From positions 1 through 64,000 of the IMG/VR virus record IMGVR_UViG_3300045591_000029: a stretch of DNA of 64,000 nt. The stretch is one strand, 5' to 3'. This DNA comes from a virus (lineage: Duplodnaviria > Heunggongvirae > Uroviricota > Caudoviricetes). Below are positions 14,338-52,499 of the stretch, in pieces (position 1 is the first letter of the stretch; every line of letters starts with the position of its first letter). The position numbers were made by a program, and so were the translations under genes. A model generated the notes under the pieces. The model was not told the DNA's origin. It saw nothing but the letters and a program-made list of their open reading frames with translations, and searched no databases.

Positions 14338-14802
14338 TTAATTATTATCGGCCTTCTGTCTAAAGCGTTTGACAGATTCAATAGCTTTATCTTGACCAAG
14401 AATATATTTATGTAACATATTTTTCTCTTTATCAAGAGCCTCTTTAAGTGCGTCGGCTCTATATTTGCAGCGCATCATATTTCGATTAAAAGCGCCTAAT
14501 GGGTCCACTTCCGCAGGAGTTTTAACGCCAAGACCTAATACCTCTTGATAAAACTGATTGCGGACATTAAACTTATCTCTCTCTTGCTTATAAAAATATT
14601 CAAGGGCTTCAATTCTTGCTTTTGATAGAGCAATATTATATCCAACTTTTTTAGAGTAGAAACCTTCATCACCCTTACTTAGTACAGCAGCGCCATGAAA
14701 AGTATGCCCTTGATAGCAAATCTTTACATTGGTGATACCTTCTTCTTCCTAATAATCTTTCATAATCACAGGAGCTTTATATATAGCTTTAACCAAATTC
14801 AT
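14338..14802 (-). CDS. hypothetical protein with one in-frame TAG
   Basis: hand translation MNLVKAIYKAPVIMKDY*EEEGITNVKICYQGHTFHG...FRQKADNN; no ORF on track because of TAG. Confidence 0.45.
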
Positions 14803-16536: not shown

Positions 16537-17223
16537 TTATCCGTAGTAACCTCCATCGGGAGGATCTCGTTTATAAGAGGTGCAAAGTTCAGGGATACAG
16601 CCACAATTAGGATAGGTATACACGCACTTATCGCATCTAATCACAGGCTTTGGTTTTTCAACCTACAGCTGAGCCTTGCACTCTTCTACCTTCTCGTTCA
16701 TTTCTTTGATAACATCATCAAGGAGAACGGGATAGCACTCGTGGGAATCGACTCCCACATGATACATGAAAGGAATTTCATTGTAGAAATTACTTGTTTG
16801 ATGGGTATGACCAAAGAGATTGCAAGTCACCTGCTTAAGTGACTCTTTCTCAAGATTGCCTGTTAAAGTAGGATAATGAGAAGCATAGAAATGATACTTG
16901 CGATAAGTGAAAGCATAAGCGTCAAACACGGGAATACCAGCTCTAAGATAGGCTTCTCTGCGGTTAGCAGTATCATGGTTACCACCAACCACGAGTTTAC
17001 GACCATTCATGCGATTGAGCAAAGCAATCCCTTCCTCAAGCTTATCAGCTCCGCCGAGCATGAGGTCGCCGCAGATAATAAGAGTGTCTTCAGGGGCCAC
17101 GCACTCATTATTCTTCTTTACGATAGTCTCATTCATCTCTTCAACACTCTCAAAACCACGAGCTTTCCAGATAAATTCCTTATCGTGATTATAATGGTAA
17201 TCTGATGATAGCCAAATTTTCAA
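16537..17223 (-). CDS. calcineurin-like metallophosphoesterase with TAG read-through C-terminal Cys-rich extension
   Basis: GDLMLGG...GNHD motifs; ORF ends at TAG 16663-16665, same frame continues VEKPKPVIRCDKCVYTYPNCGCIPELCTSYKRDPPDGGYYG to TAA. Confidence 0.55.
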
Positions 17224-17229
17224 TATAAG

Positions 17230-17934
17230 TCACTTCCTTTTGGGTGTTGTAATGGCTTCAATTCTCGACATTCCATTTTTCATACGCTTGTATACCGAAT
17301 TTTTTGAAATATTATAAATGGAACACCAATCTTTGAAATTGTGAAATTCTCCATTGATTTCAATTAACTTGCTGGCTTCTTCTATGGGGATGTTATTTGG
17401 AATGATTTCCAGTGTTTCTGGATTATATTCCCTAAATATAAATCCCTTTACTGTTTTATATCTGTTACTACCGGATGCGCATTTTCTAATACTAGCTCTA
17501 TCAGTTCCTAACTCATGAGCTGCGGCAGTTATTGTAGGAAAAAATTTCTTTTCTCCACTTGTTTCTGAAATGGCACAAATGGGTGTTGCCAATTTAGCTC
17601 GTACTTCTGGATCATCAAATGGATATTCTGTGTTTAGAGTTTGATTATATCCATGCTAAGAGGTTAAGCTATTATATTCAATGATTGCATCATGCTCTAA
17701 TTTATATCTTTCTTCTGGAGTTTGAATATCTTTTATTAAGATTTGAAAATCAAAATTCTCTATACCATATTTTCTTATGGCTCGATATAATGGATATTCA
17801 TATCCTGCGCGAGATTCGAGACGAGCATTTTGCTAATGTTCATACCACCTTGTTGTAAATCCTCGTGACTAGTCACTGGAACCAATATAGGTTTTATGGT
17901 TAATCAGATTTTCGATTTTATAAATGAAATACAT
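17230..17934 (-). CDS. GIY-YIG homing endonuclease with C-terminal HTH (3 in-frame TAG)
   Basis: MYFIYKIENLINHKTYIGSSD*SRGFTTRWYEH*QNARL...; C-terminal part equals track ORF 17230..17592. Confidence 0.6.
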
Positions 17935-18023
17935 TTTATCACCTTCCATTTATAAATGGAAATTCTTACAGACTCTTTTATTACTTCTGACCTCATCTTT
18001 GATAGTCATTGAAAAACTTATTC

Positions 18024-18557
18024 TTAATGGTGCACACGCACCTCGATATTAGAAAATCCCCAATTGGTCTTAGGAAACTCTTTTTCAGTAGGAATAGAAA
18101 ATCCCTTCTTCATCTTCTTAATTGCGGAATCGGGGATTCTGGCAACGCCAGTCCGCTGAGCATTACGCTCAAGAGCGGTTTCGACAGGAACATCAATGAC
18201 TTCAAAGGTCAATTTGGTATGCGGATCTGCGATCAACCGACCAAGGAGCTTTGCACGAGAAGCGGGGCTAATATGAGTCGCATCCGCAAACACAACATCA
18301 ATATCAAGTTCCATAGCTTCATTAATCTGTCGGACAAATTCGTCGAATACTTCAACTTCTTTGTCAAAGTAGCTATCACGATCGGTCAAGATGGACTGCC
18401 GCACGAAATCTCTGGAAACTACACAAGTGGTGCGATGCTCTTCTTCAATTCGGGCTACCTCTTGCTTCACCCAAGTAGATTTTCCGCTACCGGGTACCCC
18501 AACCATGACTTTCAGTTCAGTTGTCATTCTTTTCGCCTCCATCCATTTTTGCCCCAC
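18024..18557 (-). CDS. P-loop polynucleotide kinase (Pnk-like kinase domain)
   Basis: VMVGVPGSGKSTW Walker A, AAA_33-like kinase layout; 177 aa. Confidence 0.55.
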   Translation of the reverse strand: MGQKWMEAKRMTTELKVMVGVPGSGKSTWVKQEVARIEEEHRTTCVVSRDFVRQSILTDRDSYFDKEVEVFDEFVRQINEAMELDIDVVFADATHISPASRAKLLGRLIADPHTKLTFEVIDVPVETALERNAQRTGVARIPDSAIKKMKKGFSIPTEKEFPKTNWGFSNIEVRVHH

Positions 18558-18792
18558 AATGTGAACAATACTCCCAGAAGTTACTCTTGATTACTTTCTT
18601 ACATACCGGACAAATTCGTTCCGTATGATAATTCATGCCAACTTCAATATCCCATTTACTGTGAGTTACTGGAATAACATCTGCAGCTGGTATTGCCATC
18701 AGTGCAGCAGCACTCACGTACACATCGTCCCAACGACCATGTATGAAATTGGCTTGCGATACAGCCACAGCACGGTCAATGTATTCTGGCAT
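18517..18792 (-). CDS. zinc-ribbon protein
   Basis: CPVCKK...CSHCGAKM; 91 aa. Confidence 0.4.
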   Translation of the reverse strand: MPEYIDRAVAVSQANFIHGRWDDVYVSAAALMAIPAADVIPVTHSKWDIEVGMNYHTERICPVCKKVIKSNFWEYCSHCGAKMDGGEKNDN

Positions 18793-19054
18793 TAGCTAAC
18801 CTCCGTTCAACTTCAGCCATCACCCAAGCAATATCTTCATCAGATACCTCGGTTTCAAACTGAATAGAGCAGTTCTCACCTTTTACTCTTGCTTCAATGA
18901 GCAAATTAACAGCATCTTCAAGGTCCTGTTGATGCTCTATGAAAGGAGAAAAAGCTCGATTCTCTTGAGCACAAGGACATGGGACAGGAGACCAAAGATC
19001 GGATTTGCATCTTGGGTTATCGTGATAATCTAACATACCATGCGGATGAGTCAT
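18776..19054 (-). CDS. hypothetical protein
   Basis: 92 aa intact ORF. Confidence 0.4.
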   Translation of the reverse strand: MTHPHGMLDYHDNPRCKSDLWSPVPCPCAQENRAFSPFIEHQQDLEDAVNLLIEARVKGENCSIQFETEVSDEDIAWVMAEVERRLANARIH

Positions 19055-19220
19055 TACTTTTCCTCCTGTTCAATAAACTGCTGAATGATAGCCATTGATT
19101 TTTCAATATCATTTAGCTCGTCATCAATGAACACGCCGCTCCAATCCAGACTATCAATAATGCCATCGAGGGTTTCCAACGCTTTAACAGCGTCATTTTT
19201 AGTGACCATACCTCATGACT

Positions 19221-19262
19221 TCCTTTCTTAACTTTCTATAAATATTATAATATATATTTATA
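19221..19262 (-). promoter_or_regulatory. same promoter-like motif
   Basis: tcctttcttaactttctataaatattataatatat. Confidence 0.45.
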
Positions 19263-19305
19263 ATAAAATCAAAAGGTTCTAAGAATTAGAACCTTTTGAT
19301 TTTAT

Positions 19306-19803
19306 TTAATTAGTTTGATCAGTAAAATAGACTTGTGAAAGTTCACCAATGTCATCAATCTCACAATCGTTTATTTCAAATGGCCAATCTACCCATAAAT
19401 CAATATGATTTTCTAAAAAATTTAATGGATCTTTCTTAAAAGTTTTATAATCTTCCTCAGATAGCTCAAGTTCTCCATGGTAATATCCGCCTCGTAGATA
19501 ACCAGTAACCCAATCTACTTCTGCATCTATATTAACTTTATGAGTTACCTCAGTTGGATTGTCAAGAGAGATATAATATTTTTTGCCATTGATTTTTTTC
19601 CAGAATGAATAACTACTTTTTGGATAGCCAACTTTTTTTTCTAGAATATCTTCCTTGGTATTAGATTGCAACACAATAACTGGGTTTTTACGCGGATCTT
19701 GACCAATTGGGTGAAAATCTACTCCATCGGCGCCGGTAATTTCAAACCATTCTTTCCATCCTGTTCCTTTTTGCCATTCAGCCATTATTATTCCTCCTGA
19801 CAT
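19306..19803 (-). CDS. hypothetical protein
   Basis: 165 aa intact ORF. Confidence 0.45.
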   Translation of the reverse strand: MSGGIIMAEWQKGTGWKEWFEITGADGVDFHPIGQDPRKNPVIVLQSNTKEDILEKKVGYPKSSYSFWKKINGKKYYISLDNPTEVTHKVNIDAEVDWVTGYLRGGYYHGELELSEEDYKTFKKDPLNFLENHIDLWVDWPFEINDCEIDDIGELSQVYFTDQTN

Positions 19804-20612
19804 TGGATTAGAGATTCGATATACTCGCGTCCTTCTCCGACAAATAGCGGGATACTTTTATCAATTTCCCAGCTAGAGCGAGTTACACCATCGGTCTCAG
19901 TTGTAACCTTGATGCAACAAGAGCCATGCTTATACATAGGATGAAAGTTTTCCCAAGAAATCCCTTTCTCCGTGATTAGCATCTCTTTGATTTTCTCACA
20001 AGACTTACCTTGGAGTTCTTTATGAGAGAAATTAGCCTGGCCTACCATTTGAATAGAATTGCGGGTTGCATCTAGCTGACGCCAATAGACGAGGTTGGTG
20101 ACCTCTTCTTTGGGAATATTGAAGCAACGAGCATCAAACATGGCGCCCATTTGTGTTTTTACTGCATAAGTCTGGCCCAAATCATCTTGTGGGTAAGGGT
20201 TATCCATAGTCGCATGAGCGGCATAATAATCTAGATTCCTATGCCGGACTCCTTCATTAAATGCTTTATTGAAAGCCATCGTTGCCATAGAAGCAGCGAT
20301 AGAGCACATTTTCTGTACCTCGTAATCAAACCAAGCAGAGCTGTTGAGCCGCTTGTAATCAACAAGGATAAGAGTGATTTCATCACTTTGTGTATACCCT
20401 AACACGCACCCTTGAATGTTTTCACAGAGATATTTCATGGTATCCTGCATTGTGTTAATCAATACATCATCAAAAGGCTTGCTGAAACCACGGGTAAAGG
20501 TGTGGAAAGCTTTACCGTCAATGCGAATTGCAACCGGTGTACGACGCATTAGCTTAGTCTTAGGAACGCTTTCGTAATCTTTCATTCTTTTAGCCAGATC
20601 TGACGTATCCAT
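19788..20612 (-). CDS. Thg1-like protein (tRNA-His guanylyltransferase family; 3'-5' nucleotidyl transferase for tRNA 5'-end repair)
   Basis: VAIRIDGKAFHTFTRGFSKPFDDVLINTMQDTM...LGYTQSDEITLILV matches Thg1 core (RxDG..FH.F...KP.D...QSDE). Confidence 0.6.
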   Translation of the reverse strand: MDTSDLAKRMKDYESVPKTKLMRRTPVAIRIDGKAFHTFTRGFSKPFDDVLINTMQDTMKYLCENIQGCVLGYTQSDEITLILVDYKRLNSSAWFDYEVQKMCSIAASMATMAFNKAFNEGVRHRNLDYYAAHATMDNPYPQDDLGQTYAVKTQMGAMFDARCFNIPKEEVTNLVYWRQLDATRNSIQMVGQANFSHKELQGKSCEKIKEMLITEKGISWENFHPMYKHGSCCIKVTTETDGVTRSSWEIDKSIPLFVGEGREYIESLIQCQEE

Positions 20613-20613
20613 A

Positions 20614-21387
20614 TTATACCTCCTTTATAAATACACTAGTTTCTAACAATAAATCTTCTAAACAAATATCTTGTTCGTGAGTATATGGAATCCTGATAAT
20701 CTTTATTCCGTTAGTAGAACACCATTGATTTTTTATTTTGTCATGCAATACTGTTTTTTTGAATTGTTCTTTGGTATTCCATCCTCGTCCGACATAGGAA
20801 AAATGTTGTTCTCCATCAAACTCAATAATGTATTCATCGTTTACATAAAAATCAAAACGAGCTAGTTGCTTAGTATCAGGGAAAACACAATCAGGAAAGG
20901 TTTTTTCTTTTTCAAAGCTGATATTATTAGCAGTTAGTATCTTTTCTATTGTGTATGCTCCATGAGATTGCTTCATACAGCCACAGGAGAATGTTTTCCC
21001 GCTTACCAAGTTGTAACTACGGACTTCGGTCTCATTTCCGCAATCGCATAAACAATGCCATACTACCTGTCCATTCAGTCTTTTACTAGTTGGATATTGA
21101 GCTACCAATTTGCCGAATCTCTAATTAGATAAATCTTTAATTGGAGTTTTCTTGCCGGCACGCTCTTTCTACAAGCATCCACAAGACTATGTTAATCCTT
21201 TTCGCAGGTTAGAACTAAGCACATCTTTTTCATTTCCGCAGTCGCAAATACAATGCCAGATAGTCTCTCCTCGGCTATCTTTTCCAGCGATATTAAGTGC
21301 TGTTAAGCGTCCGAATTTCTGTCCAGTAATATCAATTCTTCTTCCCATAATCTCATAAAACTCCTTTATATTTATTTTTTCTACCAT
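20614..21387 (-). CDS. putative homing endonuclease of the FGRLT...WxCxCDCGN zinc-module family (three modules; 3 in-frame TAG); joins track ORFs 20614..21108 and 21187..21387
   Basis: frames identical (573 nt apart), intervening sequence ...KGLT*SCGCL*KERAGKKTPIKDLSN*RFGKLVAQYPT... has only TAG stops. Confidence 0.5.
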
Positions 21388-21497
21388 AAATGAATTTTAT
21401 GAAATAGAGATTAAACTTTTCTGTCCTTAGATATTCATGGCTGGTAGAATCTTCCCCTTTCTTATACATATATTATATAATAAAATAATAAAAAAAT

Positions 21498-21520
21498 CAA
21501 GGGAGCAAAAAGCTCTCTTG
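21498..21520. terminator. hairpin caagggagc-aaaa-agctctcttg flanked by T/A runs (bidirectional)
   Basis: 9-bp stem with one G.U, poly-A upstream and poly-T downstream. Confidence 0.45.
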
Positions 21521-21622
21521 ATTCTTCTTTTAATCCTTGCTCTTTCCGAGATTACTAGTCTTGAAATAGCTGCCAATCCAACCGAGCGTACCGGCGCAAA
21601 GTGGAATCATATCCTTGGTAAA

Positions 21623-21793
21623 TCAAGTTGTCTGGAACAAAGTATTTAGACCATCAGTGAGAATATTACCAATGGTAATAGAAGCCACCTATCCTCCGAA
21701 ATAGCACAGCCAAAAAGAGATAAAGGGGAGAACGAGTACTGTTGCGATTATCAAAGCAATAGCTCCCAGAATAGCCAGAAAATCATCCATCAT
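21623..21793 (-). CDS. small membrane protein with one in-frame TAG
   Basis: MMDDFLAILGAIALIIATVLVLPFISFWLCYFGG*VASITIGNILTDGLNTLFQTT. Confidence 0.3.
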
Positions 21794-21808
21794 AATAAAC
21801 TCCTTATA

Positions 21809-22090
21809 TTAAAATAGAATATCGCGCTCAAACTGAACGCTATAAGCAGAGCTGGGATGGCTTTTACATCTATTAACCCATTCACAATGCCCCAGCACAG
21901 CTTCTTCTCTAGTGGCATAACGAGCCACAATAATCATATTATGGTCAGCGACCCAAACCGCGGTTTCATAACCCTGGTCTGCGGTTAGACAAGTGTCGAT
22001 AGTATAATCATCGACTTGATCGCGCCCAACGAGATCAGCGTCGTGATTGTTGCAAGCAATGCCAAACATTAAACTCATAAGATTATCCAT
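21809..22090 (-). CDS. hypothetical protein
   Basis: 93 aa. Confidence 0.4.
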   Translation of the reverse strand: MDNLMSLMFGIACNNHDADLVGRDQVDDYTIDTCLTADQGYETAVWVADHNMIIVARYATREEAVLGHCEWVNRCKSHPSSAYSVQFERDILF

Positions 22091-22814
22091 TGCGTTTCCT
22101 CTTTTCCTTCTTTTTCGTAGCTACATCAATAGTCTGTCGATGTACAGAGTAGATTTTTGAGGTAAGCCCATTCTTCATCAATTTATTTAGATTGACCGGG
22201 CTGTAGTTAATTGCGTCAGAGCAAACATTCAGATGTCTGTCGTCATTTTTATGACGACGATCATGGATATGACCATGAATATTAAACACCCAAGGCATCA
22301 TAGGAAGAGGTTCATGGGAGAGAATAAGTTTTTCTCCAATCATGAGAGGCCCCTCATAGATCTCGTCAAAGAGATTATTGTCTGCGGAAACTTCCCAATA
22401 ATCAAAAGGAAAATTGAAGTCATATACATCAGTAATGGAATACTGACAATCGGGGTAGATGCGTTTCATTTCATCAAGAGCCTCAGATTTCTGAAAGACT
22501 TCTTTGGGGAACTTACGAGAAATCTTTTTGCGCTCATAATTACTGCGGCCGGCGTCATGGTTCCCCATAATGAGCACCTTATAACCACGAAGTTTAGCGC
22601 ACATAGCCGGGTCGCCGCAGTCTCCCAAGATAATCAGAACATCTTTCTTACCAACTTTGCTATTGATAAGTTTAACCTGCTCTTCATCGGAAGGACGACC
22701 TGGAGTTCCAGCGGCGAGTTCTTTATCACCAAAATGAGGATCTGAATATACCCAAGTTGTCTGTCCATTCCATCTTTCGTTAAAAACTTTATACAGTCCG
22801 GGAATCATCACCAT
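22083..22814 (-). CDS. calcineurin-like metallophosphoesterase
   Basis: GDCGD...GNHD...HGHIH motifs. Confidence 0.7.
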   Translation of the reverse strand: MVMIPGLYKVFNERWNGQTTWVYSDPHFGDKELAAGTPGRPSDEEQVKLINSKVGKKDVLIILGDCGDPAMCAKLRGYKVLIMGNHDAGRSNYERKKISRKFPKEVFQKSEALDEMKRIYPDCQYSITDVYDFNFPFDYWEVSADNNLFDEIYEGPLMIGEKLILSHEPLPMMPWVFNIHGHIHDRRHKNDDRHLNVCSDAINYSPVNLNKLMKNGLTSKIYSVHRQTIDVATKKKEKRKRNG

Positions 22815-23551
22815 TCCTCCTTCTTAGAAAGGTCAATTGCGTCGGCAGCATTAAAGATATGTTCATCAAAGCTATCTAAATCTAACAATACAGTATAACC
22901 AGTATACCAGCTTGCACAGTCCAAATCAACTTTGTGGTCTTGTGCATACCACCAAGCTCCACCATCCCAATCTGGAATTTCATCGCTCCAATTATTTCGT
23001 TTTAACAGATATGGAATAGGAGTATGACCGTGCACGCAAATTTCTTTATCACCAAAAATAGGTTCCTTAGAGTGCCAATGGCATCTATCCCAAAGTAGAT
23101 CGTCGTCATTAGGGATAGCATCATCCTGCATTGGATTAAAGCCAGCATGACAGAGATGGATAGTGATTCCCTGTTCATTTACATATTTCTTATAGGTTGG
23201 TAGTTTCTTGAGATAATTCCACCAGCCAGTTTTCATTGGTTCTAAAAGCCAGTCAAGGAAAGTTTCTCCACCACCATTTTGAGAAAGCAAAGCAAAATTT
23301 TTCCCAAGGACTCCGCATCCTTCTCTCCGCACTTCATCTTCCATGGCTTTTACCAGCATATCTTCGTGATTACCTTTAAGATAGATAAAACGCTTATCTT
23401 GAGCAACTGCCTTGATAGTCTCCCAAGGATTTGGACCTCTATCTCCGGCATCGCCGAGAAAATAAACCGTATCATCGGGTTGTAAGAAATCCTGAATCTG
23501 CTTCAATAGATCCAATCTACCGTGCAAATCTGAACACGCATATGTTGCCAT
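22808..23551 (-). CDS. metallophosphoesterase (PP2B/PrpE-like Ser/Thr phosphatase or Ap4A hydrolase family)
   Basis: DLHGR...GDAGDRGP...GNHE...HGHT motifs. Confidence 0.7.
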   Translation of the reverse strand: MATYACSDLHGRLDLLKQIQDFLQPDDTVYFLGDAGDRGPNPWETIKAVAQDKRFIYLKGNHEDMLVKAMEDEVRREGCGVLGKNFALLSQNGGGETFLDWLLEPMKTGWWNYLKKLPTYKKYVNEQGITIHLCHAGFNPMQDDAIPNDDDLLWDRCHWHSKEPIFGDKEICVHGHTPIPYLLKRNNWSDEIPDWDGGAWWYAQDHKVDLDCASWYTGYTVLLDLDSFDEHIFNAADAIDLSKKEEW

Positions 23552-23700
23552 TATTCTTCCATCTCCTTTTCAATGATTTCAATAGCTTCTTGCAAATCGT
23601 TAGCAAGACAAATTGGAGCTACCCACTCATTAGCTTCTGCCCATTCAAGATCAAGCTTGAGATTCTCAAGTAGTGAAAATAAATCCATTATATACCTCCT

Positions 23701-23946
23701 TTAGTGTAACTTCATCAGATCAGAAAGATAGCACCAATCTTTGATATACTGAGGGAAAAACTCCATGTACTGTTCGCCAGAATCTTCGATAAAATGGATA
23801 TGTCCATCACGCCAAGTCTGCACAGAAACAATAGAGGCTTCAGGATAAGCATATCCACGAGTAGTTTCTTCATCGAGACGGATAAACACCTTACTACTAG
23901 GCACAGGCAATTCACCATTCTTAATGTTATGGAACATTTCTTTCAT
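23701..23946 (-). CDS. hypothetical protein
   Basis: 81 aa. Confidence 0.4.
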   Translation of the reverse strand: MKEMFHNIKNGELPVPSSKVFIRLDEETTRGYAYPEASIVSVQTWRDGHIHFIEDSGEQYMEFFPQYIKDWCYLSDLMKLH

Positions 23947-24037
23947 ACTCTTTCTCCCCTCTCTTATACATATATTATATAATATATTATTATAAAAATA
24001 AAGAGACTCTTACTGGCTAGGTAAGAGTCTCTTGCAT

Positions 24038-24424
24038 TTAGTTTTCTAATCCGATGGGAACGACATCCATGACACTATCGGGGTACATACTCCATTCGCC
24101 CCAAGCTTTCTTACTACCTTGAATTTCAGCTAGCTTTTGATTAGCATCAATCATATCCGCTACATAGATAAGCGTATCATCGTTAAACTGGTGTGACTGT
24201 GACATTTGCGTAATAATTGTTCGTTGAGTTTCAAAAGAAGCTAGAAAGCTTCTATACTCGCAGGTAGTTAAAAGCATTGCCAATGCAATAATAACTGCTA
24301 CCACTCCAGTAAGAAGCGTACTTACAAGATAGAGTGTGCTATCCCAGCAACTCTTATTGAGTGCCTTCAATGAAACAACACAGACGATGGTACAAATAAA
24401 AAGAATAATACCCCAGTAAAGCAT
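24038..24424 (-). CDS. membrane protein
   Basis: two TM helices; 128 aa. Confidence 0.45.
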   Translation of the reverse strand: MLYWGIILFICTIVCVVSLKALNKSCWDSTLYLVSTLLTGVVAVIIALAMLLTTCEYRSFLASFETQRTIITQMSQSHQFNDDTLIYVADMIDANQKLAEIQGSKKAWGEWSMYPDSVMDVVPIGLEN

Positions 24425-24438
24425 AATCTATACTCCTT

Positions 24439-24591
24439 AATCTTTAAATTGAGAGGCAAAGTGTAAGAGTATTAAAGAGAGAGTCCCTGTCGTAAAACCG
24501 GTAAGATAGACGGCTGAAGGAGGAACTATTGTTCCTAGAATAGAACCAGCAACAATAGTAGCCAGCCACAAACCATAGAGGATAATTCTCA
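24439..24591 (-). CDS. small membrane protein (50 aa, below track threshold)
   Basis: MRIILYGLWLATIVAGSILGTIVPPSAVYLTGFTTGTLSLILLHFASQFKD with RBS. Confidence 0.3.
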
Positions 24592-25322
24592 TACCTCGTC
24601 CTGCGCCTCCTCCATATCGGGAGCAGTCTCAGTCTCTTTGATAATACCCTCTAAATAATTTATATTCAAGTTATCAAACTCCTTATAAGATATTCTAACA
24701 AGTTTTATATTGTGGGTTTTGCAATACTCGGTTTTATAAGCATCTCTTTTTTGGATAATAGCCAAAGAGTCTTTTCTGTGTTGCCATCCAACTTCATGCT
24801 GTTCTCCATCATATTCAATAAGGCATATAAGTTTATTATTATTGTCAAATATTGCATAATCAAAGCTCGCAGATTTTCCACTATCTGGAAATATACAGTC
24901 TGAAATCTTATACTGTGAGATAAAGTGAATATTCATCTAAGTCAACAGTTCGTTAATTTTTAATTCGGCCTTCGACTTCAAGCATCCACATGATTGTGTA
25001 TTACCATCCATTAAATTATCTGTTTGAACAATAACAATATTACCGCACTCACATAAACATTTCTAACTTCCTGGCGGTACTCGCTCTAAGACAGTGAGTT
25101 TTCCAAATTTTTTACCTTTTAGGTCATAGGTTTTGAAATGTATTGCTTTATCGCATCCACAAGACCCGGTATGTCCATTTCGTAGAAAATCTGTTCTTAC
25201 TTCTGTTATATTCCCACAATCACACTAACATATCCATCTAGTATATTTATCATTGCGCTTAGGAGCACGTTCGAGCGCTACTAATTTCCCGAAGCGTTGA
25301 CCAGTTAAATCCAATGCTTTCA
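24589..25322 (-). CDS. putative homing endonuclease of FGKL...CDCGN family (3 in-frame TAG); track ORF 24589..24936 is its C-terminal part
   Basis: MKALDLTGQRFGKLVALERAPKRNDKYTRWIC*CDCGN...GKKFGKLTVLERVPPGS*KCLCECGN...LT*MNIHF... paralogous to 20614 gene. Confidence 0.5.
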
Positions 25323-25404
25323 TATATAATACCTCCTTGGTTTTCTATTATATATGAAATCTCTGGAGGGTATATTATTTATTTTTGCCCTCCAGAGATA
25401 AATA

Positions 25405-26667
25405 TTACTCTTGAGCTTCCTCAATATCAGGACTGTCAGAAGTTTCCTTAATGATACCTTCAAGGACGCGGAACTCGTAAGTCTTAGACTTGAAAGCAGT
25501 GAAAGTGCGACGGTTGACGATACGAACCACAACGCCCTCTTTAACATGAGTTTTGCCGATAGGATCGGCCAAGTCCTCGAAATACTTGTTAATGCGGTCC
25601 TGCAGGTCCTCGGCAGTAGTGAACTTGAAGTTCTCAATCACCGGGACACGATTAAAGCCATGCTTCTCACACCAAGCGGTAATCTCGTCAGGAGTCCACT
25701 CACGCTGACCGTTCTCGGAAGTGATGCGATAAATCCACATATGAGACTCACCGGGCTTGCAGCCGTAGGAGAAGATAGACTTTTTACCGAACAGCTTTTG
25801 GAAAGCCTTATCTTTTAGCTTGGAGTTATCGCCGATAGGCATGATGGTATCGTTCTCAGAGGGGCCGTAGTACCCTACTACCTCGTAGAAGACCTCCATA
25901 CCGGGATCAAGATGGGGTTTCAATGCCTCATGGTGAGACATACGGAATAGATCATTGCCGTAGTAGCCCTGAGAGTTCTCAGTTACAACACACCGGCGCG
26001 TACCGAGAACATAAGCCTGCTTCAGACGCTTCTTCATATGAAATAGACGACGGAAGAAGCCATTGGGAAGCTCAGCAAAGGTGTTCATGGAACGCTGAGA
26101 AGTGCCATGCATCTTAAGAGTCATATTCAGCTCATCACCTGGACGGAACTTATCCAGATTGTATGCAAGCTGCTCAGTGTCAGTATGCATTGCAAACTCA
26201 GGATAGGTAATACCCTCTGCCTTACGACCCTTGTAGGAAGTTTTAGGAGTGGTGCTCGGAGTCTTACGCTTAGGAATATACTTACGGCAGAACTCCTTGT
26301 CATTGATAGTGTTTACCTTGTCGCCGTCCTCCCAGTGCTGATCGCCAAAAGTCTCATAGATGCGCTCAAGAGCGATGACGATGCCAGAACTCTCGTTGCC
26401 ACGAAGCTTGATAGCCCGCACGTGAGAACTATTTTCCAAGTATCCGCCCTGAGGAGTGCCATCGAGATTTTTTCGATATAAGGTGAAAGCATCACCAAAC
26501 CATCTCTCAATTTCTCCGTCGGTAGGAAGATAAAGCACTAGCTCATTTTCTTTCATGTTGGGTCCAACAATAACCCCTTCGTTAAAACAATCTGCCAACC
26601 ACAGATTATCAGAATTAGGGTCTTTATGGAGATTATTTAGTTTTGTCACTAGAGCGTAATAAGCCAT
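25405..26667 (-). CDS. RNA ligase, Rnl2-like family (nucleotidyltransferase)
   Basis: motif I LKMHGTS (KxHG as in T4 Rnl2 KIHGT); 420 aa. Confidence 0.6.
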   Translation of the reverse strand: MAYYALVTKLNNLHKDPNSDNLWLADCFNEGVIVGPNMKENELVLYLPTDGEIERWFGDAFTLYRKNLDGTPQGGYLENSSHVRAIKLRGNESSGIVIALERIYETFGDQHWEDGDKVNTINDKEFCRKYIPKRKTPSTTPKTSYKGRKAEGITYPEFAMHTDTEQLAYNLDKFRPGDELNMTLKMHGTSQRSMNTFAELPNGFFRRLFHMKKRLKQAYVLGTRRCVVTENSQGYYGNDLFRMSHHEALKPHLDPGMEVFYEVVGYYGPSENDTIMPIGDNSKLKDKAFQKLFGKKSIFSYGCKPGESHMWIYRITSENGQREWTPDEITAWCEKHGFNRVPVIENFKFTTAEDLQDRINKYFEDLADPIGKTHVKEGVVVRIVNRRTFTAFKSKTYEFRVLEGIIKETSDSPDIEEAQE

Positions 26668-27382
26668 TTAATTCCTGTTCCTCCTCTTTACTAATTCGTT
26701 TATAGATAAAACCTTTATATGTATTTCTCTATCCATTTAATACTCGATAAATTGCTTTATCGGTCTTTGCTTCTGGACAAAATTCTCGATACGCCGAAAT
26801 TGCAGTAGGAAAAATAGCTAATAATTGACCATCTTTATCATACTTCGCAATCGGCTATCTTCTTGCTTCCAGTGCCTTTTTCTTTGCATCTTCTCGATGA
26901 CCATCTTGATAGGCTTGCTTTAATTTTTCACTTCGCTCTTCTTTTAAGGAAGGATTGTCAATAAACTTCTATTTTAGAGAGTTGCTAATCTTTTCATTTC
27001 TTTCGTGACTATAAGTCCGATTTTTAGCAGCTAAAGTCATATGCTGTCGATACTCTGGATCTTCCCATAGCAACTTAACAGACTCGCCTATCTATTTTCT
27101 AATTTCTTCCGTTTGATAATTTCCACCCGGAGAGACATTGTAACCAAAATCTGTATCTAAAAGATTTAATTCTTTGATTGTATCTATCTCTTTTTGTCGA
27201 ATTAAATCTTCATTATCAGATTCTAATATTACTTCCTTAGTTACATTTTCCCAGCCATATTTTTCTATAGCGTATCCGACGCGCTACCCTTTATATCTCC
27301 CCGACGCTCGCTGTTCAATAGAATTTCTAGTAATTCCGCAGTATTTTTTCCCATTTGGGAAAGTGTATAAATAACAGATCAT
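26633..27382 (-). CDS. GIY-YIG homing endonuclease (5 in-frame TAG)
   Basis: MICYLYTFPNGKKYCGITRNSIEQRASGRYKG*RVGYAIEKYGWENV...; five TAG, terminates at TAA; no ORF on track. Confidence 0.6.
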
Positions 27383-27465
27383 CTAAATAACCTCCTAAAT
27401 CTTTCTACTTATATTAAAAGTCATTAGGAGGTTATTTAGAAGTTTTGTCCAATCGCTACTTCATT

Positions 27466-27756
27466 TTATTCCTCTTCGTTTACATCGTAGCCTTGACTAA
27501 TCATGACTGCTACAGCCTTATAAACCATGCGTCCGAGGCTTTTAGACTTGCCTTTCCGCACAAGTCCCATTTCAATCAGATTGCCGATAAGTCTTGCCAT
27601 TTTCTGAGAAGTCAACGGCTGAAGAATCATATCTTGGCTTTTGATTTCATCAATCGTCATGGCTTCCTCGGACTCATTCAAGATGCTAAGAATACGCATC
27701 TTGTATTCTCCCTCTTTTTCGGGAGAAGGGCGATGAACTCTTACTCTTCCGGGCAT
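27466..27756 (-). CDS. small winged-helix-like protein
   Basis: 96 aa; MARLIGNLIEMGLVRKGK segment. Confidence 0.35.
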   Translation of the reverse strand: MPGRVRVHRPSPEKEGEYKMRILSILNESEEAMTIDEIKSQDMILQPLTSQKMARLIGNLIEMGLVRKGKSKSLGRMVYKAVAVMISQGYDVNEEE

Positions 27757-28014
27757 TTACTTAACCTCCTTGTAGGAAATGACCTCAAGATTTTCAATCT
27801 TTGTGGAGATAGATGCCTTACCAGTATAGACTACTGCAATCTTGGTGTTTCTATCAACGCAGATGACTCTACCAGTGCGGCCGTCTCTCACTCTTACGAT
27901 AGTTCCATCACAAACATAGGGCATCATATAGCTATCTCCTCTCTTGTTACATCGTAATGTCGATACCTTTTTCGTGCAGGATATTGATACACTCCTGCAA
28001 ATAAGCATCATCAT
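27757..28014 (-). CDS. hypothetical protein
   Basis: 85 aa. Confidence 0.4.
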   Translation of the reverse strand: MMMLICRSVSISCTKKVSTLRCNKRGDSYMMPYVCDGTIVRVRDGRTGRVICVDRNTKIAVVYTGKASISTKIENLEVISYKEVK

Positions 28015-28351
28015 GTTCAGGATAAATCATATTACCCTGCTTGGCAGATTCATAAATCTCTTCATACTTAGAATCAGAAATCCATGTATCTTCGCCCAAT
28101 GTACTTCCTCGCCAGTTCGGATTCTTCCAAATCTTATCTGGATGGTAACCACGCTTCTCCATCTCGTCCATAATCAGATAATGATAAGCGACAAGCAAGG
28201 CAGGGTCATGTGTAAAAGCATAGTCTACAGTTGCGTGTTTCTTGCCCCAGCCTTTTCCTCTCAGAGCCGCACATTCTCGATGCTGACCTAAGAGACGCTG
28301 ACGGTCAAGATAGGGAATAAGTTTTTGATGCCAGATACGAATGGTTATCAC
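27947..28351 (-). CDS. denV: pyrimidine-dimer DNA glycosylase (T4 endonuclease V / DenV family)
   Basis: N-terminal ITIRIWHQKLIPYLDRQRLLGQHRECAAL resembles DenV TRINLTLV..LADQHL.AEYREL. Confidence 0.6.
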   Translation of the reverse strand: MITIRIWHQKLIPYLDRQRLLGQHRECAALRGKGWGKKHATVDYAFTHDPALLVAYHYLIMDEMEKRGYHPDKIWKNPNWRGSTLGEDTWISDSKYEEIYESAKQGNMIYPEHDDAYLQECINILHEKGIDITM

Positions 28352-28400
28352 TTCTTTCTTCCTTAACTTTCTATATATATTATAATATATTTTATAACAT
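28352..28400 (-). promoter_or_regulatory. same promoter-like motif upstream of denV-like gene
   Basis: cttccttaactttctatatatattataatatatttt. Confidence 0.45.
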
Positions 28401-28491
28401 TTTTCAAATAGGTATTTATTTTGGCCAAAAGCTGATATACACTCATTATCATTTTTTAGATAACAATAGAGAAAATAATGAAAGGGGCAGA

Positions 28492-28761
28492 TTGTCTATG
28501 TATTCTCAGATGATGAGTGGGGAGAAAATCACTCCCTATCTAGTTCGTCTACTAGTTGATACCGAAGACGAAATTGCCACCCTTCCTACCCACTTTACCC
28601 CTGGCAGCACTTGCGAGGTTGTCGCAACTTCTAGCACTTATAGATTGAACAACCAGGGTCAATGGATTAAACAAAAGTCAAGTGGCGACGGAGGCGGTGG
28701 GACAGTTGTCGTTGAAGGCAGCTTAGCCGACATTGCAGACATTGATAAACTATTTGGTTAA
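28492..28761 (+). CDS. hypothetical protein (plus-strand island)
   Basis: 89 aa with RBS. Confidence 0.4.
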   Translation: MSMYSQMMSGEKITPYLVRLLVDTEDEIATLPTHFTPGSTCEVVATSSTYRLNNQGQWIKQKSSGDGGGGTVVVEGSLADIADIDKLFG

Positions 28762-28774
28762 GGAGTGATTCCTA

Positions 28775-29032
28775 ATGGCAGTCGCATTAGAAAACCTTAT
28801 TGACCTTAACCTTTTATCTCACTATGATACAAAACTCAAAGAATGGGTTAAGGAACAGATTAAAAATGGTGGAAGCATTGAAGTAACACAGCGTTCTGAG
28901 CTTCCTGAAGTTGGTGAAGAAGGCAAGATCTACTTTGTAGAAGATGCCATCTTGCAATATACCACAGCAAATGGCTATCAAAAGATCGGCGGAACTGGAA
29001 GCCCGCAGAAAATTGAGTGGCATGACTTTTAA
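28775..29032 (+). CDS. hypothetical protein (plus-strand island)
   Basis: 85 aa with RBS aaggagtgattcctaATG. Confidence 0.4.
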   Translation: MAVALENLIDLNLLSHYDTKLKEWVKEQIKNGGSIEVTQRSELPEVGEEGKIYFVEDAILQYTTANGYQKIGGTGSPQKIEWHDF

Positions 29033-29040
29033 TTAAAAGG

Positions 29041-29063
29041 GTCGAAGTATTAAATACTTCGAC
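29041..29063. terminator. hairpin gtcgaagta-ttaaa-tacttcgac followed by T-run
   Basis: 9-bp perfect stem then ctttattttttt. Confidence 0.5.
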
Positions 29064-29074
29064 CCTTTATTTTT

Positions 29075-29827
29075 TTATTCAATTAAATTATTAAGAGTAA
29101 TATTGCCAATTTGAGTATATGGAATACGTAATAACGGAATATTGTTTTTCTTACAATATTCATCTTTTAATTTATCTCTCTGCTAAATAGTTTCTAATGA
29201 ATCTGACTAAGACCATGTTGCATCAGGTCCTAAAAAATGCTATCTTCCATCAAATTCAATTAATTTGTAAAGTTTATCTTCTTTAAAGATAGCAAAATCG
29301 AATCTTAATAGACCATTTTTTTCTGTTCTTAAATCATTAAAGGTATATTGCTAAATAAAGTTTATATTATTTTTTCTTAATAAGTCGGCAATAACTCTTT
29401 CGCCTCTGGATTTAACGCATCCACAAGATTGAGTTCCTCCACTTTTTAGATTGTTATTACTTACTTCAATAAAATTTCCACAGTCACATTGACATAAAGC
29501 CCATCTTATCTATTTATCTCGACTGGCCTCTTTTCGATATCCCAAGTCTTTTATAAAAGTTAAATGGCCAAATTTAGTTCCGGGGTCAATAATTCCTCTA
29601 TTAAAATTTTCTTGCGATAATTGTTCATTTCTTAAACATCCGCAAGATAAAGACCGACCAGAGTATAAATCTCTATATTCCTTATATCTCTTTGTGCCAC
29701 AATCGCACTAACATAAAGCCATTTTTGGAGGTTTTTTAGCCTTACTATTAGGATTTACTGTATTAACCTATAAAATAGTCCATCTTCCGAATTTAGCCCC
29801 TACCTTAATAAGATCAGATTTTTTCAT
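29075..29827 (-). CDS. putative homing endonuclease of FGRWT...CDCGN family (about 7 in-frame TAG)
   Basis: MKKSDLIKVGAKFGRWTIL*VNT...W ALCQCDCGNFIEV...LIEFDGR*HFLGPDATWS*...; EFDGR*HF aligns with EFDGEQHF in paralog 20614. Confidence 0.5.
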
Positions 29828-29895
29828 CATAATCACTCTCCTTAAAATTGGAGAGACGGACATTAATGTCCGTCTCTCCAAAAGTATATAAAATT

Positions 29896-30729
29896 TTATG
29901 ATAACTCTTTATATTCTTTTGCCCAAGGAGTATCATCAAAATAAAAGTTAGGAGATTTATTTAGCCACCATTCATGCTTAAATGTTTTTTCTCCATTCCA
30001 ACGGTTCCAAATTGTATCTAACTCCTCAATATCTTGAAATAGCATCTCGCAATGAGGTCTCTCAACTCGATCAGAGTGAAAATGAGCAAAAAGCCATACC
30101 TCCCAATCAACTTTACTCTTGATATCCTCAAGCCAAAGTTCCATACTTTTATCTACTTTGGATTGGTCAAGACCAGAGAGAAACAAATCTCTTGGCTCCC
30201 AAGAAATGGGACAAGTATGGGTTAGGACAAAATCATAACGCTTACCCTCAACCCATGCGCCAATTTCATCCATTTCCTTTTTGGTTAGCTGTTCATCCTT
30301 GAACCAGCCAGTCCAACTATCTGTATCTTCTGGACGATCTCTAAGTCGATACCACTTATCTACGGAATACGCTCCGCCGATAGCAAAGACAGAGTAGCCA
30401 TGAATGTTATAACTCTCTCCATCAAAGAGGTATCTGATATTCGGAAACTCTGGCTCATAATAGACGCCACCATCGACGTCTTCATCATACATTTGCTCCA
30501 TGGAAAGATTTTCTGGACGCTCTTCATGGTTTCCGCGAACCGCGTAAATGCGGAAGCCTGTATTGTTTACGTTTCTCTTATTCTTGCGATCGGTCTTATT
30601 CAGATAGAAATTAAGCCCCATATCGCCAAGAATAATCAATGCAGTTTCATCAGGAGGATATCCAATATGACTAAGTCTTTCAAGGACTTGACCATGAGTG
30701 TCTCCTGTAACGAGCCAGTTCTTAATCAC
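29896..30729 (-). CDS. calcineurin-like metallophosphoesterase
   Basis: GDTHG...GDMG...GNHEERP motifs; 277 aa. Confidence 0.7.
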   Translation of the reverse strand: MIKNWLVTGDTHGQVLERLSHIGYPPDETALIILGDMGLNFYLNKTDRKNKRNVNNTGFRIYAVRGNHEERPENLSMEQMYDEDVDGGVYYEPEFPNIRYLFDGESYNIHGYSVFAIGGAYSVDKWYRLRDRPEDTDSWTGWFKDEQLTKKEMDEIGAWVEGKRYDFVLTHTCPISWEPRDLFLSGLDQSKVDKSMELWLEDIKSKVDWEVWLFAHFHSDRVERPHCEMLFQDIEELDTIWNRWNGEKTFKHEWWLNKSPNFYFDDTPWAKEYKELS

Positions 30730-30743
30730 TAGTTATCACTTCC

Positions 30744-31406
30744 TTACAATTCATCAATATTGGGTAAAGTATTTTTGGTCTTCCAGTAGAAGCCATGAGA
30801 AATAGACGGCATATCTTTATATTTACTTATATGATTACCTATCGCTCTTGCACTAGCTCCAGGTGGACAGATAGCTCTAGCTGCCGCAGAAATTGATTCA
30901 TATATTGCAATAATTTCTTTTGTATTTGGGTCGATCGCGGCAACGCGTTTAGATAGCTTTTTAGGACCAGCATTGGTATCCACTTTAATTCCTTTTGCTT
31001 CTAATTTAGGCTTAAAAGAAGCATAATCATAATGGAACTCTTTGCAAAGTTTATCTAATCGTTCTCCATTATTATATCTTTGGATAATTTCATCCATGTG
31101 TTCGTGATAATCTTTTATGCCGCCTTCTCCACCGCCAGTACAATTATAGCCAGCTCCATAACTGCCATAATAAGCAATCCAGTAAATTTCTCTATTGTCA
31201 ATATTAGAAGTATCACACTCTTCGATCGTTTCAATGGCGAAATTTTCTTTTCCATATTTTGCCATAGCTTTATAAAGCGGTAGTCTATCGCTATATTTAG
31301 AGACATTCCGTAGATGCTCTGCCCAACGCTATTCAACTGTGCGTTCTGTTTTGCCAACATACACTTTATTGTTGATAGTGTTGGTAATTTTATAAATAAA
31401 TCCCAT
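30744..31406 (-). CDS. GIY-YIG homing endonuclease (1 in-frame TAG); track ORF 30744..31265 is the C-terminal part
   Basis: MGFIYKITNTINNKVYVGKTERTVE*RWAEHLRNV...AMAKYGKENFAIETIEEC...REIYWIAYYGSYGAGYN. Confidence 0.6.
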
Positions 31407-31481
31407 ATAAATTCCTCCTTATTGTGCTATTATATAAAAATTAGAAGAATTTAATGAAACTCTTTCGCCCAAACATTTCCA

Positions 31482-32285
31482 TCACTTAGTAATTTCCTCT
31501 AAGAGGGCTTTCTTTACAATATTATATTGTACTTCGTTGAGTAAAGTATCAACTTCTGTATCCACATCATTCTTATTATGAGTGTTGCAAAACTCGTCTG
31601 CCTCGTTTACAACTAACTTTAGATATTTATCAGCAATTTTTCGAGCCTCATCTAAAGAATATTTACCAAGTTTAATGTCCATGATAAAATCTTTATCTTT
31701 TGGATAAAGACATTCTTCATACGGGTAACCGGCGAGGTAAGAACTAATGAAATTCTGAACTCTTACTAGATGTGAAACTTGTTTTGGATCGTATCCATAC
31801 TCGGCTAGTACTTCCAATTTGCTAGGATATTCATGCTCCATAGCATGATATTTCTCCATAGCGATACCCTTCATGGTCTTAACTGCGCCATATGGAGAGT
31901 AGTGAGCAATCTGCTCGCGCGCCGCAGTCAGACGACCCCATTCACTTTCAAAAAGAGGGTTTACCCAAGCATAAGGGGTAAAGAGAATTTCAATGAAGTT
32001 GAGATTCTGTTTGCGGAAGGTGGCGAGCATCAATCGAATATCCTTCAGATCGGTATGCTCGTTGTTTGCTCTTACATGAGTGGTGCTGATAGGCTTCTTG
32101 TTAAGAACCACTTCATCAAAAGTAGGAGTAACAATCAGCTTTGTATCAACATCACTCTTAGGAGTTTCAAGACCATAGTTCTGAGAGCCTTGCAGGAAGA
32201 TACCGACGATTCTAGATTCGTCGAATCTTTGCAAACTTTCATCGAGATGGTCATAGACTCTACTCATAACATCAGTCATCACCAA
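31482..32285 (-). CDS. Pol-beta-superfamily nucleotidyltransferase
   Basis: LQGSQNYGLETPKSDVDT (GS..DxD motif); 267 aa. Confidence 0.5.
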   Translation of the reverse strand: MVMTDVMSRVYDHLDESLQRFDESRIVGIFLQGSQNYGLETPKSDVDTKLIVTPTFDEVVLNKKPISTTHVRANNEHTDLKDIRLMLATFRKQNLNFIEILFTPYAWVNPLFESEWGRLTAAREQIAHYSPYGAVKTMKGIAMEKYHAMEHEYPSKLEVLAEYGYDPKQVSHLVRVQNFISSYLAGYPYEECLYPKDKDFIMDIKLGKYSLDEARKIADKYLKLVVNEADEFCNTHNKNDVDTEVDTLLNEVQYNIVKKALLEEITK

Positions 32286-52062: not shown

Positions 52063-52499
52063 CTAAGAATGACAATTAGGGCATAAAAATCTTAAATTTT
52101 CAAGCCTATGGTCATCATTTACTCCATTGATATGGTCTAATTGCAAACTAATGGGTTTACCTAACCATGAATCAATACCACAACAAGCGCATTTATATTC
52201 TAAATATCCTTCTCTTACTAGTCTGGACTTTAGACGACTAATATTATGATAAGTAGAATGTTCTACTAAAATTTCTTCAAGTGTATATTTTGCATTTGCC
52301 GCAGTTAATTTCTTTGTCCCAAAGTGGGAAATATCGCAAGATAATTCTTGAATACGCTCTTTGAGGATATCTGTAGAAGAACCACCTTTAGTAGTTAATC
52401 CCAGCATCCTTAAACAATCTGAATAACTATTCGCCTATGAAACAATGGTACGAAATTCTTCATCAGTAACTTGATAAATTTTACTTCTTCTAGCCATAT
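52063..52499 (-). CDS. HNH homing endonuclease (1 in-frame TAG); track ORF 52063..52407 is the C-terminal part
   Basis: MARRSKIYQVTDEEFRTIVS*ANSYSDCLRMLGLTT...LQLDHINGVNDDHRLENLRFLCPNCHS. Confidence 0.6.

Follow-up and report, generated by a model that had tools for sequence, protein, structure and literature searches.

Phages that decode TAG as glutamine (genetic code 15) were reportedly treated by Ivanova in 2014. This recoding is not new: it is established in other gut phages and has been validated there by proteomics (bioRxiv 10.1101/2021.08.26.457843; PMC9523058). How suppressor transfer RNAs (tRNAs) become charged in recoded phages that encode no synthetase was not resolved in the main survey of such phages (bioRxiv 10.1101/2021.08.26.457843). 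Glutaminyl-tRNA synthetase (GlnRS) uses 1-72, 3-70, G73, 10-25, U35 and G36 as identity elements, and amber suppressors with a weakened 1-72 pair insert glutamine (PMC9976931). Here we analyzed a 64-kb stretch of DNA (positions 1 to 64,000 of virus record IMGVR_UViG_3300045591_000029, hereafter the window), which has 40% G+C and carries nearly every gene on the minus strand, including all genes and RNAs whose coordinates are given below. Its source is an uncultured human-gut phage of about 145 kb, a new lineage of the already known code-15 gut phages. The analysis concerns a putative homing-type nuclease gene at 24589-25323 that is interrupted by TAG codons; the initial annotation had taken TAG to be recoded, probably to Gln, in this and other genes. 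Such recoding is ordinary for code-15 phages; the part deserving follow-up is the architecture of the suppressor tRNA, which bears a second, Gln-anticodon-like hairpin.

Among 42 curated genes of the window, 18 carry a total of 57 in-frame TAG codons, in line with the earlier count of at least 18 recoded minus-strand genes. Read with TAG as sense, these frames are long, lie on the minus strand, start with ATG and end with TAA or TGA. As had been noted before, TAG is the only codon that breaks them: none of the 42 genes needs read-through of TAA or TGA, and the genes stop at TAA (32) or TGA (10), never at TAG (0). In gene 24589-25323 the TAGs are located at 25225-25227, 25063-25065 and 24937-24939, between an ATG start and a TGA stop. 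Pfam domains continue across such codons. The match to Phage_lysozyme2 crosses three TAGs of the endolysin gene and covers profile positions 1-139 of 140, Amidase_2 spans a fourth, and the GIY-YIG domains of five genes span TAGs as well. The one TAG of the NAGPA gene precedes the domain. In 24589-25323 the DUF2726 match lies beyond the TAGs, and in the gene at 29075-29863 it extends across four. A comparison of genetic codes had been proposed as a check. Greedy open reading frame (ORF) coverage was 0.73 under code 11 and 0.78 when TGA was made a sense codon (code 4), but 0.88 when TAG was; making TAA sense gave 0.85, a value reached only through added plus-strand ORFs. A code-15-specific gain in coverage was found in every related locus with a GyrA identity of at least 75%.

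All window frames delimited by TAA or TGA were aligned by tblastn to 148 related IMG/VR loci, and the subject codon opposite each window codon was read. TAG was also found in some relative at 187 of the 204 window TAG sites covered by these alignments, which run on both sides of the conserved sites. Six-frame queries with all stops masked as X were tried as well; their counts were discarded, because the identity filter let through off-frame alignments of conserved DNA. The TAG-sense reading is borne out at the positions listed, those in gene 24589-25323 included, with some corrections. The interval 61801-61956, once counted as a TAG-bearing gene, falls in a repeat-rich non-coding stretch of about 1.4 kb and finds no support as a gene; the gene at 52021-52497 (listed as 52063..52499) contains two TAGs where one was claimed; and a TAG upstream of the RNase H gene (10376-10879) precedes its ATG. 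Pairs of same-frame ORFs separated by a single TAG had also been put forward. The number of such pairs does not discriminate, because tightly packed genes and antisense frames yield as many TAA/TGA junctions. The window has TAG inside conserved genes, residues opposite TAG that fit Gln, no TAG terminator, its highest coding density with TAG as sense, and an encoded tRNA(CUA). Judged from sequence, the reading of TAG as a sense codon, that is genetic code 15, is confirmed.

The amino acid inserted at TAG was addressed by a likelihood test restricted to non-overlapping genes and to distinct states per site, in which the window's own substitution spectrum for each amino acid was compared with the residues opposite TAG in the 148 loci. 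Gln came first in every identity stratum: below 60% identity (-957.8, next Lys with -989.6), at 60-80% (-88.1, next Lys with -123.4), at 80-95% (-110.9, next Asn with -164.1) and at 95% or more (-27.0, next Trp with -29.2), the last stratum holding merely 8 changed states. The codons found opposite a window TAG were, commonest first, TAG, CAA, AAA and CAG. Since CAA, two changes away from TAG, is the top sense codon, selection rather than TAG-CAG mutation alone must have shaped this distribution. In the reverse direction, over the two most diverged strata, 24-31 of every 1000 Gln sites of the window face a TAG codon in relatives, and the rate for any other residue is no more than 9 per 1000. 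In the GIY-YIG motif Y-I-G-[TAG]-S of gene 3273-4187, one of the alignments on which the Gln proposal had been based, the relatives show Q (35) or TAG (22) and nothing else. The TAG site of the uracil-DNA glycosylase gene is occupied in relatives by TAG (11), CAA (3) or TAT (1), and the three sites of gene 24589-25323 by TAG, K, R, Q and E. TAG/Trp pairs, which the initial annotation had mentioned, do exist, but number only 3 and 2 sites in the two strata of closest relatives, and they fit single A-G transitions at variable positions.

A tally against database homologues had also been suggested. A word-indexed protein search returned almost only near-identical proteins already translated with Gln, which are not independent; consequently, 150 representatives, one per 50%-identity cluster, were taken from a full-library protein search. 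At the endolysin TAG 12627-12629, 46 of the 51 diverse homologues aligned have Gln; the remaining three endolysin sites are variable and polar. Public protein sets already contain the endolysin with Gln at all four TAG positions, hence automatic callers assigned code 15 to those contigs. Taken on the alignments, Gln is the best-supported residue decoded at TAG.

The window encodes an amber suppressor tRNA(CUA) that is absent from the initial annotation, as are its Gln-like acceptor end and its extra hairpin. It is 91 nucleotides (nt) long with an encoded CCA (49146-49236; ARAGORN; 54.5 bits with the Rfam tRNA model) and has its CUA anticodon at 49201-49203. In the Rfam tRNA alignment the acceptor end shows a U1·U72 mismatch and G73; the D arm is of normal class I type with G10, and the anticodon arm reads GCGGU-CUCUAAA-ACCGU. 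For comparison, ARAGORN identified two ordinary tRNA-Gln genes, tRNA-Gln(CUG) at 41941-42014 (A1-U72, G73, anticodon loop CUCUGAC) and tRNA-Gln(UUG) at 43171-43246 (A1-U72, G73). Among 79 distinct phage tRNA(CUA) sequences nearly all have U:A, A:U, A·C, U·U or U·C at 1:72 and a G or A discriminator. The suppressor thus shares the acceptor features of a GlnRS substrate, with its weak 1:72, G73 and G10. Its own anticodon has U35 but A36 in place of G36, CUG being present only in the extra arm, and its variable region comprises 20 nt instead of the 4-5 nt of a class I tRNA.

This variable region, A-UCC-CUCUGAA-GGA-GUAAGU, contains the extra hairpin UCC-CUCUGAA-GGA (49180-49192), with CUG at 49185-49187 and a 7-nt loop that matches the anticodon loop of tRNA-Gln(CUG). 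Loci anchored by proteins yielded 21 distinct tRNA(CUA) sequences, 10 short (70-76 nt) and 11 long (88-97 nt). All 11 long forms carry the hairpin, with the loop Y-U-C-U-G-N-N or, in locus L122, C-U-U-U-G-A-A, which displays the second Gln anticodon, UUG. With a pattern scan of IMG/VR the long forms rose to 66 distinct sequences. All 42 distinct hairpins examined form the two inner base pairs of the stem, each of which occurs in four pair types, and 27 of them form a third pair. The covariation score of the hairpin, 0.494, was not attained in any of 500 shuffles (mean 0.170), and slid registers scored 0.08-0.14. Some arms form full stems of 5 base pairs (bp), for instance CACGG-CUCUGAC-CCGUG, accompanied by a compensated UACGG/CCGUA variant. 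Short (73-75 nt) and long (89-97 nt) tRNA(CUA) genes occur together, sometimes adjacent, in loci L107/L108, L151, L171, L179, L156 and L270; the two forms therefore coexist on the same contigs and one has not simply replaced the other. No description of a cognate-anticodon arm in suppressor tRNAs was found in the open-access literature, subscription journals being largely uncovered, and the architecture is likely, though not certainly, previously undescribed.

Opal suppressors show a corresponding arm of a Trp type. A repeat scan for tRNA(UCA), whose pattern fixed only the UCA loop, a long spacer and the T loop, found UCCA in the variable region of 26 of 27 distinct long tRNA(UCA) sequences; the 27th retains CCA in the loop, and UCCA is expected in a random 25-nt stretch about 9% of the time. 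A motif-specified scan recovered 55 distinct tRNA(UCA) of 93-100 nt with a covarying variable arm of 4-5 bp and the loop N-U-C-C-A-A-A, the anticodon loop of tRNA-Trp. In this type the second hairpin, a linker of 3-4 nt and the T arm resemble the 3' half of an ordinary tRNA-Trp. Some of the extra arms are CCGGU-CUCCAAA-ACCGG, identical to the anticodon arm of E. coli tRNA-Trp. These tRNA(UCA) with A1-U72 and G73 in the acceptor occur in unrelated phages (IMG/VR loci L291-L500, e.g. L366 and L313); for individual cases a tRNA-Sec-like (selenocysteine) identity is possible.

TAG is distributed very unevenly among gene classes. Homing-endonuclease genes have 16.5 TAG per 1000 codons (39% of their TAG, CAA and CAG codons), lysis genes 9.5 and fibre-region genes 4.6, followed by RNA-repair genes (0.5), other genes (0.4) and genes for replication and nucleotide metabolism (0.3). 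Gene 24589-25323 (3 TAGs) encodes Zn-ribbon repeats and a DUF2726/PD-(D/E)XK-like C-terminus (DUF2726, E=1.2e-5) and has paralogues at 20614-21387 (3 TAGs) and 29075-29863 (DUF2726-like, 7 TAGs). The GIY-YIG endonucleases are located at 3273-4187 (N-terminal coiled coil, 13 TAGs), 17230-17949 (with a NUMOD-like domain, 3), 26633-27382 (5), 30744-31406 (1) and 52898-53644 (with a Zn-ribbon, 5), and HNH and LAGLIDADG endonucleases at 52021-52497 (2) and 45364-45762 (1). In all, twelve genes of homing-endonuclease type spread over 3273-53644, several of them within the tRNA array: GIY-YIG (five), DUF2726-like (three), HNH, LAGLIDADG and PDDEXK_5 (two, both without TAG). Their ratio of CAA to CAG is 57:11, as opposed to about 1:1 to 1:3 in other classes.

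The endolysin (Phage_lysozyme2, Amidase_2 and SLH; 11343-12674) has TAGs at 12627-12629, 12480-12482, 12288-12290 and 11994-11996. It is adjoined by a holin-like membrane protein at 11020-11343 (3 TAGs), a function suggested by transmembrane sequence and position; the protein had no Pfam match. A second cell-wall enzyme (NAGPA and SPOR) lies at 44192-45052 (1 TAG). The remaining TAG-bearing genes encode a protein of unknown function of 154 amino acids (aa; 14338-14802, 1 TAG), a fibre-region protein of 170 aa (38702-39214, 1), a small protein of 71 aa (39220-39435, 2), the uracil-DNA glycosylase (55966-56685, 1, at 56656-56658) and a metallophosphoesterase (16537-17136, 1), whose TAG is followed by a Cys-rich tail of 42 aa, the conservation of which was checked in close relatives only. 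The large replication and topoisomerase genes had been said to contain no TAG, which holds for all 1825 codons of the block at 4793-10373 (ATP-dependent DNA ligase, GyrA-like and GyrB-like proteins); this block is readable under the standard code and is presumed to be expressed early. The SPFH/flotillin-like gene at 14982-16478, unlike every other gene of the window, encodes Gln with 33 CAG and 0 CAA, and may be a recent acquisition or contain a repetitive Gln-rich segment. The recoding is of consequence chiefly for annotation, in which about a fifth of the phage genes, lysis genes included, look broken when the standard code is applied.

The uneven use of TAG fits the published pattern of recoded late and lysis genes and standard-code early genes (bioRxiv 10.1101/2021.08.26.457843) and extends it, in that endonucleases bear most of the TAG load in the window. 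In the published model, TAG-free genes would be translatable by the unmodified host, while TAG-containing genes would give full-length protein only after the phage suppressor tRNA has accumulated. By this logic recoding would gate lysis and, in this phage, also potentially toxic endonucleases; besides timing lysis, it may keep selfish nuclease genes in check. Charging would be carried out by the host, whose GlnRS, or a non-discriminating glutamyl-tRNA synthetase (GluRS) together with GatCAB, would load the suppressor with Gln on two bases: the retained acceptor features of tRNA-Gln (weak or mismatched 1:72, G73, G10) and the variable-region hairpin, which reproduces the Gln anticodon loop Y-U-(C/U)-U-G-A-R and would restore the G36 determinant missing from the CUA anticodon. 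The enzyme might gain access, speculatively, by an alternative stacking of the two adjacent hairpins on the D arm, so that it sees the cognate arm and the ribosome the stop-reading arm; otherwise it might contact the arm directly in its variable-arm position. We hold it very probable that this code-15 phage gates lysis and endonuclease genes through recoding and has its suppressor charged with Gln by the host through both acceptor features and the mimic hairpin. The extra arm is proposed as an identity element because its loop sequence tracks the inserted amino acid in two suppressor types, because GlnRS and tryptophanyl-tRNA synthetase (TrpRS) both read the anticodon, and because synthetases bind anticodon-like hairpins outside tRNAs (PMC9976931). 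The broader notion that phage stop suppressors split the identity anticodon (CUG/UUG for Gln amber, CCA for Trp opal) from the decoding anticodon, so that unmodified host GlnRS or TrpRS would accept them, is put forward tentatively, with doubt slightly outweighing confidence. A cognate-anticodon hairpin for both Gln/UAG and Trp/UGA nevertheless provides a specific hypothesis for suppressor charging without a phage synthetase. If true, it would represent an undescribed tRNA architecture and a rule, taken from nature, by which efficient suppressor tRNAs could be engineered for anticodon-reading synthetases.

Other readings of the TAG codons were weighed against this one. Many of the interrupted genes are homing endonucleases, a class that often decays, and their fragments under code 11 are short, as would be expected if the frames were decaying pseudogenes or unrelated pieces in which TAG still terminates. 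This explanation is already contradicted and deserves practically no credence: TAG is the sole interrupter, complete domains cross it, it is kept at those 187 of 204 sites within alignments that extend to either side, and no gene uses it as a terminator. The affected genes include essential lysis genes, and the phage supplies a matching suppressor tRNA. Scarcely more credible is a host that itself uses code 15 and is merely matched by the phage. The phage brings along a suppressor of its own and a tRNA set that is nearly complete, TAG is shunned by its replication genes as expected if they are read by a standard-code host, and the hosts of TAG-recoded phages use the standard code in the published survey (bioRxiv 10.1101/2021.08.26.457843). 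Improbable too, if a little less so, is that TAG is sense for Ser, Leu, Tyr, Trp or pyrrolysine. It would suit the 20-nt, class-II-like variable region and G73 of the suppressor, both found in the three tRNA-Ser genes of the phage, the TGG codons opposite TAG at 5 sites in close relatives, and the label "Pyl" that ARAGORN attaches to any CUA tRNA. Yet Ser, Leu, Tyr and Trp are outside the top-ranked candidates save in the stratum of at least 95% identity, where, on 8 changed states, Trp is put within 2 log units of Gln (tabulated as -27.0 against -29.2), and the conserved endolysin site has Gln in the 46 of 51 homologues given above. A73 is needed for Leu and Tyr identity in bacteria, and the suppressor lacks it. 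Although it has the long arm and G73 of a tRNA-Ser, Ser fits the residues opposite TAG poorly, its D arm is class-I-like and its extra-arm loop is that of a Gln anticodon, not of a Ser-type arm. With a normal D loop of 8 nt and a long variable region it does not resemble tRNA-Pyl either; that label stems from the anticodon alone, and a scan of the 40 larger ORFs revealed no Pyl genes.

Several observations weigh against the proposed assignment and charging route. Three of the four endolysin sites and all three sites of gene 24589-25323 are variable (K/R/E/N/D/Q) and weak individually; kinship among the loci inflates raw counts, for which distinct states per site were counted without phylogenetic correction; and the early or late class of genes was assumed from function. 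As to the tRNA, the Gln-type stem has only 2-3 bp in most sequences, and 10 distinct short suppressors have no arm, which is therefore not required for suppression. Minimum-free-energy folding gives a cloverleaf with the extra hairpin, without significant z-scores, and in the window tRNA it prefers a sequence-specific 4-bp register that is not conserved in the family; folding energies neither support the hairpin nor exclude it. Class I GlnRS is described as approaching its tRNA with the variable region facing the solvent, and a variable-arm hairpin may need a rearrangement to reach the anticodon-binding domain. The hairpin might be real without being a synthetase identity element, serving folding or stability, as a binding site for another factor of phage or host, or as a decoy for an anticodon-directed nuclease or modification enzyme, or being left over from a duplicated anticodon arm. 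This is possible, but we lean against it. The geometry of GlnRS, which does not obviously permit contact with the extra arm, the short stem and the existence of armless suppressors all speak for it, and the tRNA-repair set of the phage (RNA ligase, kinase, Thg1-like) hints at a conflict with anticodon nucleases. On the other side, the loop follows the inserted amino acid (CUG/UUG in amber, CCA in opal suppressors), both synthetases concerned are anticodon readers, and binding of an anticodon-like hairpin outside a tRNA has a precedent in threonyl-tRNA synthetase (ThrRS) and its operator; that the loop is conserved while the stems covary counts against a neutral remnant. The converse arrangement, with the CUG hairpin as the true anticodon arm and the CUA arm as an insertion, was rejected, because the genome needs UAG decoding and because the CUA arm is a canonical 5-bp stem directly after position 26, whereas the CUG stem has mostly 2-3 bp.

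Near and distant searches gave no DNA match to the window among GenBank phages, and a GyrA protein search gave a best GenBank identity of 36% with no closer relative there; consequently, no annotated relative could be used. In IMG/VR, many contigs of 75-150 kb, largely from human-gut samples, encode proteins 75-99% identical to those of the window, and the endolysin is present on hundreds of public contigs. The host is probably a member of the Bacillota. A pattern scan of genome contigs gave 37 matches, of which only 8, on 8 contigs, are genuine long tRNA(CUA) and the others chance; seven of these contigs belong to Bacillota lineages and one to Nanosyncoccus, a taxonomy that is a weak hint to the host.

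Pfam matches in the window include proteins for replication and nucleotide metabolism (DHFR, thymidylate synthase, ATP-dependent DNA ligase, GyrA-like, GyrB-like, RNase H, PhoH and uracil-DNA glycosylase), two cell-wall hydrolases and about a dozen genes of homing-endonuclease type. An RNA-repair-like set within 18024-32279 is TAG-free save for the one TAG in the metallophosphoesterase 16537-17136. It comprises an AAA_33 kinase (18024-18542), a Thg1-like 3'-5' polymerase (19788-20612), an RNA ligase (25405-26667), an RlaP-like nucleotidyltransferase (31482-32279) and four metallophosphoesterases (at 16537, 22083, 22808 and 29896). In principle, the mismatched U1 of the suppressor tRNA might be a substrate for editing by the Thg1-like enzyme. 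An array of 31 tRNA genes spans 35.4-53.8 kb, and a transfer-messenger RNA (tmRNA) gene is situated in the same region at 45841-46181 (Rfam RF00023, 76 bits, full-length model). Its tag peptide DNDYFDSYMAA (ARAGORN, relaxed threshold) ends at TGA; any connection with recoding, for example the freeing of ribosomes that stall at TAG, is speculative. The tRNA-Cys(GCA) at 35490-35576 is 87 nt long, has U73 and carries a long variable arm closed by a GUAA-type tetraloop, an arm unusual for tRNA-Cys, not anticodon-like, and kept in relatives (27 copies, 11 variants). Two tRNA-like genes at 40913-40986 and 47955-48029, with 8-nt anticodon loops GUUAAAAG and CUUGUUAA, are given 4-base anticodons by ARAGORN and are both kept in close relatives; frameshift-type tRNAs, Asn tRNAs or degenerate genes are possibilities. 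Within about 1.4 kb that lacks a convincing gene (61.6-63.0 kb), an iteron-like unit, GTCTGAAAAACCGAC, recurs in at least 7 copies in both orientations (62459-62704) and may mark a replication origin or a regulator-binding array.

Compared with the described code-15 gut phages (the crAss-like, Lak, Garnet, Amethyst, Topaz and Agate clades; Borges et al., bioRxiv 10.1101/2021.08.26.457843; Peters et al., PMC9523058), the window phage is alike in reading TAG as Gln, in encoding a tRNA(CUA), in the depletion of TAG from replication genes and its enrichment in lysis genes, and in that no phage GlnRS or release factor was found, here within the window. It differs in lineage, its GyrA being at most 36% identical to GenBank proteins and its DNA unmatched, and in carrying the heaviest TAG load in homing-endonuclease genes; a Gln-anticodon-like arm of the suppressor goes unmentioned in the accessible papers. 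A likeness exists to phAss-1, of the proposed Phassvirus, a gut phage about 136 kb in size, in which 28% of the ORFs contain TAG, with 36 tRNA genes including 2-3 tRNA(CUA), no phage aminoacyl-tRNA synthetase and a suggested Clostridia-type host (Babkin et al. 2023, PMC10607447). In the phage collection it has no detectable DNA relation to the window, and its tRNA identities were assigned by tRNAscan-SE only, with no structural feature reported (PMC10607447).

The suppressor itself is akin to E. coli supE (glnV) tRNA-Gln(CUA), in which a CUA anticodon sits on the body of a tRNA-Gln; GlnRS charges supE even though G36 is changed to A, and the key features, a weak 1:72 pair and G73, are shared (PMC9976931). 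However, supE is an ordinary class I tRNA of 75 nt, whereas the phage tRNA has an added 13-nt hairpin displaying CUG. A long variable arm is common to class II tRNAs (Ser, Leu, bacterial Tyr) and allo-tRNAs (Mukai et al., PMC5389517), and seryl-tRNA synthetase uses it as an identity element; the phage arm differs in its 7-nt anticodon-like loop, in the class-I Gln-like acceptor and D arms that accompany it, and in the insertion of Gln rather than Ser. In the E. coli thrS operator and in yeast mRNAs for aminoacyl-tRNA synthetases, a hairpin that copies the cognate anticodon loop is likewise recognized via the anticodon-reading site of the enzyme (PMC9976931). Those mimics reside in mRNAs and regulate translation, whereas the phage mimic lies inside a decoding tRNA, where its proposed role is in aminoacylation.

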